Source: Escherichia coli
GTDB lineage: Bacteria; Pseudomonadota; Gammaproteobacteria; Enterobacterales; Enterobacteriaceae
Direction: 5' to 3' (one strand)
DNA: 28,560 nucleotides
Assembly (NCBI RefSeq): GCF_003334815.1
Contig: NZ_QOWO01000045.1
The notes beneath the pieces were generated by a model that made no database searches, was not told where the DNA came from, and worked only from the letters and a program-made list of their open reading frames with translations. Position 1 is the first letter of the stretch. Every line of letters begins with the position of its first letter. A program made the position numbers and the translations under genes. Positions 3,400 through 3,617 of the stretch are shown here, in pieces.

Positions 3400-3617
3400 G
3401 GTCCTTTCCGGCGATCCGACAGGTTACGGGGCGGCGACCTCGCGGGTTTTCGCTATTTATGAAAATTTTCCGGTTTAAGGCGTTTCCGTTCTTCTTCGTC
3501 GTAACTTAATGTTTTTATTTAAAATACCCCCTGAAAAGAAAGGAAACGACAGGTGCTGAAAACGAACTTTTGGGCCTTTGTCGTTTCCTTTCTCTGTTTT
3601 TGGCCGTGGAATGAACA
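3400..3617. promoter_or_regulatory. cos: cos site (cosQ-cosN-cosB); the 12-nt cohesive-end sequence GGGCGGCGACCT is at 3429-3440
   Basis: The sequence ...CCGACAGGTTACG/GGGCGGCGACCTCGCGGGTTTTCGCTATTTATG... matches the joined right and left ends of lambda as I recall them, immediately upstream of Nu1. Confidence 0.85.

Follow-up and report, generated by a model that had tools for sequence, protein, structure and literature searches.

Can a cos site left behind in a decayed prophage still be used by a phage that infects the cell, and would its use carry neighbouring chromosomal genes into infectious particles? The question is raised by a stretch of 28,560 nucleotides of Escherichia coli DNA (contig NZ_QOWO01000045.1 of assembly GCF_003334815.1; hereafter the window, numbered from its first letter). 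A preliminary description of this stretch had reported a joined cos sequence and a full-length Nu1 in a prophage with a truncated terminase A and no head genes, and had proposed that a superinfecting lambdoid phage could in principle cut and package the adjacent DNA in trans, mobilising candidate defence genes or bio.

Prophage gene content and flanks were read from the RefSeq annotation and sequence of a near-identical strain, E. coli 52F4 (chromosome NZ_CM147848.1; calf, Switzerland), from which window positions 159-25900 differ by 2 mismatches in 25,742 bases. In the RefSeq annotation of 52F4, the lambda attachment site, between ybhC and ybhB-bioA, is occupied by a defective prophage. The 52F4 prophage measures 22,156 bp from core to core, with the lambda att core present twice; 10,428 bp separate attL from cos, and 11,728 bp separate cos from attR. 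Its genes (RefSeq, 52F4) and the corresponding landmarks of the window are as follows.

Left part of the prophage: int, xis, a few early-left genes and a truncated exo, followed by a deletion junction
Middle part: rusA, quuD, a porin gene, essD, rrrD, rzpD, bor, ybcV, ybcW and ylcI, in this order
Right part: cos, nohD (Nu1), a truncated terminase large subunit and a J remnant
Rest of the right part: a lom remnant, a tail-fibre gene (stf), an assembly gene (tfa), ea47, ea31 and ea59
Window 1-158, plus strand: end of ISVsa5 (IS10-like, IS4 family), a 100% match to ISVsa5 transposase ends in many genomes
Window 10119-14406, minus strand: ea47, ea31 (HNH) and ea59 (AAA ATPase), downstream of cos in the packaging direction
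Window 15157-15171, plus strand: attR core GCTTTTTTATACTAA, the right end of the prophage, with ybhB and bioA next

No cI, N, O, P or head genes are annotated in the 52F4 prophage, in agreement with the earlier statement that the head genes are gone, and because replication genes are absent, the element cannot make concatemers. Its Int differs from lambda Int by 3 substitutions in 356 residues, and of the att arms, P′ shows 100% identity to lambda attP and P shows 99.6%. Identity to lambda was 99.4% over the 2538 bp to the left of cos (window 891-3428; lambda 45966-48502), 98.4% over the 1589 bp to its right (window 3429-5016; lambda 1-1589), and 99.2% over 5921 bp of the b region (window 9257-15175; lambda 21824-27742). 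Judged by these comparisons, the host element is a close lambda relative with a lambda-type Int, lambda-type att arms, and lambda's own b region. It also has the marks of a cryptic prophage of the DLP12 or Qin kind, with a cos-noh remnant: an att site and late genes are kept, and immunity, replication, and head genes are missing.

The source strain departs from 52F4 at the left edge of the window. ISVsa5 lies here 23 bp upstream of essD, the holin gene (182-397); at the corresponding site of 52F4 it is missing, and ordinary prophage sequence is found instead. The insertion lies between Q and the late promoter on one side and the lysis and late genes, cos, and Nu1 on the other. Farther right, window 5849-9406 is occupied by one 1185-aa open reading frame that starts as Lom (residues 1 to 126 match phrog_108) and runs in frame into the side tail-fibre protein; RefSeq splits the same stretch into a partial lom and a 1057-aa tail protein. 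This reading frame appears to have arisen by a deletion in which lom became joined to stf.

Within the window, the lambda cohesive end (12 bases, GGGCGGCGACCT) is found a single time, at 3429-3440, which sets lambda bp 1 at window position 3429. We take the heptamer GGGTCCT at lambda 48473-48479 to be cosQ, with its sequence and coordinates as reportedly given by Wieczorek and Feiss 2001. After alignment to NC_001416, the region was divided into subsites. The definitions of cosN, I2, R3, I1, R2, and R1 are those of PMC9026076 and PMC4856287, with cosN (the 12-bp cohesive end, partially twofold symmetric, plus its flanking CG dinucleotides) and R3 as given in the former and I2 as given in the latter.

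3372-3609, plus strand: complete lambda-type cos, 238 bp, equivalent to lambda bp 48446-182
3399-3405, plus strand: cosQ, GGGTCCT, the packaging-termination element, identical to the lambda 48473-48479 heptamer
3427-3442, plus strand: cosN, 16 bp, CG-GGGCGGCGACCT-CG (lambda 48501-14), an exact lambda match that is unique in the window
3428/3429 on the top strand and 3440/3441 on the bottom strand: predicted cosN nicks, by the lambda definition
3446-3478, plus strand: I2, an A/T-tract static bend in the interval between cosN and cosB (lambda bp 18-50), identical to lambda
3478-3493, plus strand: R3 of cosB, AGGCGTTTCCGTTCTT, the critical Nu1 binding site (lambda bp 50-65), identical to lambda
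~3493-3518, plus strand: I1, the IHF site and intrinsic bend (lambda bp ~65-90), carrying A73G at 3501
3537-3552, minus strand: R2 of cosB, inverted (lambda bp 109-124), identical to lambda
3578-3593, plus strand: R1 of cosB (lambda bp 151-166), with T rather than C as its first base

The joined cos reported earlier is indeed present: window 3399-3609 comprises cosQ, cosN, I2, and a cosB with R3-I1-R2-R1, and the span originally pointed out (3400-3617) reaches from the second base of cosQ to the base preceding the Nu1 ATG. All subsites for starting packaging (cosN, I2, and R3-I1-R2-R1) and for finishing it (cosQ, cosN, and I2) were found at lambda spacing; the distances from cosQ to cosN and from R3 to cosN are those of lambda, and the stretch between cosN and R2 is free of indels. 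cosQ is a highly conserved 7-bp site (PMC4669245), and a 238-bp cos insert with the same limits (lambda 48446-182) is functional in cosmid packaging (PMC4856287). The polarity, from cosN through cosB to Nu1, is directed toward the b-region genes, attR, ybhB, and bio. Directly upstream of cos lies a DUF3950 gene of the ylcI/ynfO family (3035-3229, minus strand); DLP12, Qin, and the viable phages examined likewise have a DUF3950 gene upstream of cos.

Compared with NC_001416, the 238-bp cos differs at 12 positions, namely, 11 substitutions and a 1-bp deletion at bp 138 that is also found in lambda DE3. In the alignment to NC_001416, no change fell within cosQ, cosN, I2, R3, or R2. Outside I1, the only change in a defined subsite is C151T, at the first base of R1. 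This allele is common to phages PhiR26_1 and 2H10, it affects a position whose equivalent in R3 is not conserved, and it lies outside the stretch equivalent to bp 55-63 of R3, which Nu1 contacts. The A73G change in I1 likewise recurs, as G73, in PhiR26_1, PhiR34_1, PhiR49_1, and 2H10. Lambda and the window do not differ in the best matches to the IHF consensus (bp 74-86 and 79-91), neither of which includes bp 73. Between cosQ and cosN, a T-to-C change at lambda bp 48486 is carried by five of the six deposited phages compared (all except Turner). Every non-lambda allele of cos occurs in at least one of PhiR26_1, PhiR34_1, PhiR49_1, and 2H10, and window 3360-3640 (281 bp) is 100% identical to PhiR26_1, whose record describes a complete genome propagated on MG1655 with full A, W, and B genes downstream of cos. 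Literature searches found no paper describing PhiR26_1, and the viability of this phage rests on its GenBank record.

Point changes in cosN or the R sites had been named in the preliminary description as evidence that would count against a functional cos, and the IHF site had been singled out for comparison with lambda. In both respects the site came through well: cosN and the contacted parts of the R sites are unchanged and their spacing is kept, C151T at the R1 edge being the only change in the R sites, and the consensus-like IHF matches are unaltered, with A73G outside them. By this test the cos is intact, and from its identity to the cos of PhiR26_1 we infer that a terminase would nick it and that it could start or finish packaging.

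The genes immediately to the right of cos determine what the element itself could contribute to such a reaction.

3618-4163, plus strand: Nu1, the terminase small subunit, nohD-type, 181 aa, with its ATG at lambda bp 191
4138-5019, plus strand: A′, a truncated terminase large subunit, gpA residues 1 to 293 as in lambda, with TGA at 5017-5019
5015-5779, plus strand: J′, the C-terminal 254 codons of the tail-tip protein, in another frame than A′ and partial in RefSeq

Nu1 starts 189 bp past lambda bp 1, matches the terminase small subunit family phrog_57 (7e-76), and is full length, as had been claimed: 179 of its 181 residues are identical to lambda's, the exceptions being A9S and L132I. Its recognition helix (residues 17 to 24) and wing (residues 31 to 39), as defined in PMC9026076, are identical to those of lambda. 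Since the R sites as well as the Nu1 recognition helix and wing are lambda's, a terminase of lambda specificity supplied in trans should recognise this cos. The A9S change of the resident Nu1 is irrelevant to a helper's terminase. In other assemblies, prophages with intact head modules encode the identical Nu1 protein next to a cos that differs only at bp 73; gpA, at its full length of 641 aa, follows there together with W, portal, protease, D, and E.

The truncation of terminase A was equally borne out. Homology to lambda A stops after GCCCGTTAT at 5016, so that gpA ends after residue 293. What is left in A′ is the Nu1-binding region with part of the ATPase; the endonuclease and portal-binding domains, which in TerL lie in the C-terminal half (PMC9026076), are gone. 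Lacking this half and the head genes, the element would be unable to cut its own cos or to package its own DNA. The J′ remnant that follows (765 bases) matches the C-terminal ends of phrog_2148 and phrog_496. Of 5426 complete genomes, 1 had the exact A′/J′ junction; the last deletion is therefore recent. When window 2800-5900 was compared with the copy in APEC O78 (13001-16437), the A′/J′ junction of the latter was displaced outward by ~170 bp on both sides. Rather than having arisen independently, the 52F4-type junction could reflect a later deletion nested across an older one of the APEC O78 type.

We compared the locus with other prophages that keep cos and Nu1. DLP12 of K-12 has the same order of essD, rrrD, rzpD, bor, ybcV, ybcW, ylcI, cos, nohD, and truncated A, likewise lacks head genes, and has a nearly alike cos region with high lambda homology across cos. 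It differs from the present element by C53T in R3, which is unchanged here, and by what remains of A: ~100 codons are kept in DLP12 and are followed by tail-fibre remnants, whereas 293 codons are joined to J′ here. DLP12 is located at argU, and the element studied here lies at attB-lambda. The Qin prophage of K-12 (ynfO, cos, nohA, stfQ) also has retained a lambda-type cos and a Nu1 homologue and lost its head genes, but it occupies another chromosomal site, its R3 carries G54A, and nohA overlaps tail-fibre genes or is fused to them.

The element of APEC O78, together with ~20 others, has the insertion at attB-lambda, the late region, and the A′-J′ type of deletion in common with ours, and over window 159-5016 the identity of the APEC O78 copy to ours is 99.2%. 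Its A′ (349 aa) and J′ (312 aa) are longer, with the junction ~170 bp off on each side; its immunity and early-region deletions are different, and its b region is replaced. Its cos has the lambda alleles at most of the variable positions, plus A118G in R2. The differences between the two copies cluster around cos (3353-3358 and 3370-3412), with ~10 in 280 bp, compared with ~0.6% elsewhere in 159-5016. This clustering suggests a possible recombination patch at cos, derived from a PhiR26_1-like phage.

R-site changes were thus seen in three cryptic copies (A118G in R2 of APEC O78, G54A in R3 of Qin, and C53T in R3 of DLP12), and the APEC O78 and Qin changes were absent from the phages sampled, which form a small sample. 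R-site changes confined to cryptic copies would fit drift rather than selection for cos. The use of R-site changes in sister cryptic prophages as proof of decay was weakened, since C53T of DLP12 is also found in phage 2H10.

One could suppose, then, that the cos described here is an inert relic, intact merely because the deletion was recent, unused in the chromosome, and without consequence for the cell or for phages. The rarity of the A′/J′ junction, hence a young last deletion, would agree with this, and G54A of Qin and A118G of APEC O78, unseen in the sampled phages, are consistent with neutral drift. However, a deposited complete phage genome has exactly this sequence, and the equivalent cos of DLP12 is a recombination hotspot during lambda infection, with a nu1 that works in lambda (PMC3945230). 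We therefore consider an inert relic quite improbable. De Paepe et al. found recombination of lambda with DLP12 to be ~100-fold more frequent than that with Rac or Qin; of 19 junctions, 10 were next to cos, which the authors credit to terminase breaks, and lambda recombinants carrying nu1, R, or Rz of DLP12 were viable (PMC3945230).

The recurrence of cos-Nu1 with a truncated or missing gpA in DLP12, Qin, APEC O78, and other genomes might be taken as a sign of selection, with cos, Nu1, and the N-terminal gpA fragment serving as a terminase decoy or poison subunit against lambda-like phages or forming a satellite-like hitchhiker. Shared ancestry and deletions of the head-tail block account for such recurrence more simply. 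In addition, all of the genes are ordinary lambda genes, with no Rpp-like redirecting protein and no replication or capsid-resizing genes among them; ISVsa5 lies between Nu1 and the late promoter in the source strain; and lambda still grows on K-12 despite DLP12 (PMC3945230). A selected function of this kind is barely credible and is the least probable of the explanations weighed here. We also considered identity with a phage-inducible chromosomal island (PICI) or other satellite. Like cos-type PICIs, which are chromosomal, encode their own integrase, carry a lambda-like cosN, and depend on helper capsids and terminase (PMC9026076), the element is integrated in the chromosome, has its own integrase gene, and carries a lambda-type cosN that would depend on a helper. 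PICIs differ in having their own replication genes, Rpp in place of Nu1, and a distinct cosB, while in the element here cosB and Nu1 are lambda's and both Rpp and replication genes are lacking. Gene content ruled this candidate out: no replication, Rpp, or capsid-resizing genes are annotated, and a genuine Nu1 follows cos.

What a helper could make of the site depends on how packaging ends. cosN and cosB are needed to start packaging, and cosQ and cosN are needed to finish it (PMC4669245, PMC9026076). When termination fails, packaging runs on, which is lethal to the particle (PMC4856287), and cos terminases require a second cos, and uncut, protruding DNA blocks tail joining (PMC6687093, PMC4856287, PMC4669245). 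In 52F4, no second cosN in the same orientation with up to 3 mismatches was found within ~55 kb on either side, where only core genes are present. The only match with 3 mismatches fell in an unrelated stretch of core genes (L007). The locus thus lacks a cos-to-cos transducing unit, that is, two cos sites in the same orientation roughly 38 to 51 kb apart, and packaging from one chromosomal cos would yield headfuls without termination rather than complete transducing particles. A search of 52F4 for a resident lambda-type helper, with gpA codons 255 to 293 plus J′ as the query at megablast sensitivity, matched one place only and thus revealed no helper. Of the proposal that the locus is packaged in trans, then, the intact cos and its direction toward the b region and bio stand, and the finished transducing particles do not, given one cos and no second.

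Neither part of this is new in principle. Helper packaging of passive partial prophages is a routine assay of the Feiss laboratory and works when two cos sites flank a packageable length; partial prophages with only the part to the left or right of cos are standard substrates (PMC4669245). The idea of packaging in trans has thus been put to use before, and the limit that a single cos sets to transduction by cos phages is textbook knowledge. These systems and doc lysogens resemble what is predicted for our locus in that a cos at attB-lambda is cut by terminase and packaging proceeds rightward toward bio. They differ in that a second cos is supplied or that unterminated particles need nuclease trimming and tail addition; the element here has one natural cos, and there is no helper in the genome region examined.

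The distances involved can be calculated for a helper that integrates next to the element. With a lambda-sized helper in tandem at attL, the two cos sites would be ~38 kb apart, about the shortest length that can be packaged. Integration of the helper at attR would leave ~32.5 kb between them, too short for the lambda packaging range. A dimer of the excised 22,156-bp circle would measure 44.3 kb, ~91% of lambda, although an element without a replication origin would form dimers rarely. bio lies outside every possible cos-to-cos unit.

We consider it unlikely that cutting of cos by a superinfecting lambdoid phage would lead to infectious particles that hold the adjacent chromosome and move the b-region genes or bio at a useful frequency. 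The intact cos facing the b region and bio, the specificity determinants shared with lambda, the precedent of passive partial prophages packaged by a helper between two cos sites (PMC4669245), and the size of the dimer or of the ~38-kb unit formed with a tandem helper on the attL side all favour such transduction. Against it, there is one cos and no other within ~55 kb; a second is required, and uncut DNA blocks tail attachment (PMC6687093, PMC4856287); no replication module is present to make concatemers; a helper on the attR side gives only the ~32.5-kb unit; and bio would stay behind in every case. A narrower version, in which the 22.2-kb remnant is a helper-dependent mobilisable element that a lambda-type helper excises and that is then packaged either together with this helper, as a tandem cointegrate, or as a dimer of 44.3 kb, we regard as very improbable. 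If it were true, a mobilisable remnant would spread a Septu-like ea59/ea31 pair and side tail-fibre genes with neither replication nor redirecting functions of its own.

The explanation that we favour, and consider probable from the sequence comparisons and established lambda biology, is that the locus is a decayed lambda relative at attB-lambda whose cos, when cut by a helper, would give dead-end headfuls, with recombination into the infecting phage as the realistic outcome. The terminase of any phage of lambda packaging specificity that multiplies in the cell would bind R3 and R2 together with IHF, nick cosN at 3428/3429 and 3440/3441, and remain on the cosB side. Translocation would then proceed rightward through Nu1, A′, J′, stf, tfa, ea47, ea31, ea59, attR, ybhB, bioABFCD, uvrB, and onward. 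With no second cos within a headful, termination would fail, and the products would be tail-less, dead-end headfuls ending near ybiO. Such headfuls correspond to the output of excision-defective lambda lysogens at the same locus, the "doc" particles reportedly described by Sternberg and Weisberg in 1975 and by Little and Gottesman in 1971. Packaging from one cos to another would need a helper integrated in tandem, at either attL or attR, or the excised 22-kb circle in dimeric form. Supercoiling or the nucleoid context might lower the use of a chromosomal cos.

The break at cos, together with 4.1 kb of 98 to 99% homology across it and the 5.9-kb b-region homology (99%), would promote recombination, and prophage alleles would be moved into the infecting phage, as has been measured for DLP12 of K-12. 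Homology to lambda across cos is 4.1 kb here compared with 3.35 kb in DLP12, and the 5.9 kb of the b region comes in addition. Because of this longer homology and the further b-region stretch, recombination is the best-supported route for gene movement from this locus, and incoming phages could plausibly acquire from it late genes, the ea59/ea31 pair, and side tail-fibre genes. Sites of this kind are established hotspots of recombination at which lambda-like phages take up alleles of the prophage during infection. Beyond that, the locus is one more cryptic lambdoid prophage that keeps a predicted usable cos and Nu1, with little meaning beyond annotation.

The genes that had been called candidate defence genes are lambda's own b-region genes ea47, ea31, and ea59. 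In PADLOC, ea59 and ea31 matched PDC-M01A/B and ea59 also matched PtuA; ea47 had no PADLOC match. The scores of ea59 (525 aa) and ea31 (296 aa), at 11942-14406 on the minus strand, against PDC-M01A/B were very strong, and that of ea59 against the Septu protein PtuA was 8.8e-185. Given these matches, the dispensable b region of phage lambda would itself hold a Septu-like pair.

A multiple arrangement of cos was seen in assembly GCA_018427835.1 (JAGUKE010000002.1), where three lambda cohesive ends in one orientation, at 2686, 4104, and 5812, lie within 3.1 kb. Each adjoins DUF3950 and Nu1-like genes in a Qin-like context. This triple cos may be a scaffolding artefact, as the locus contains an N, or a real tandem.
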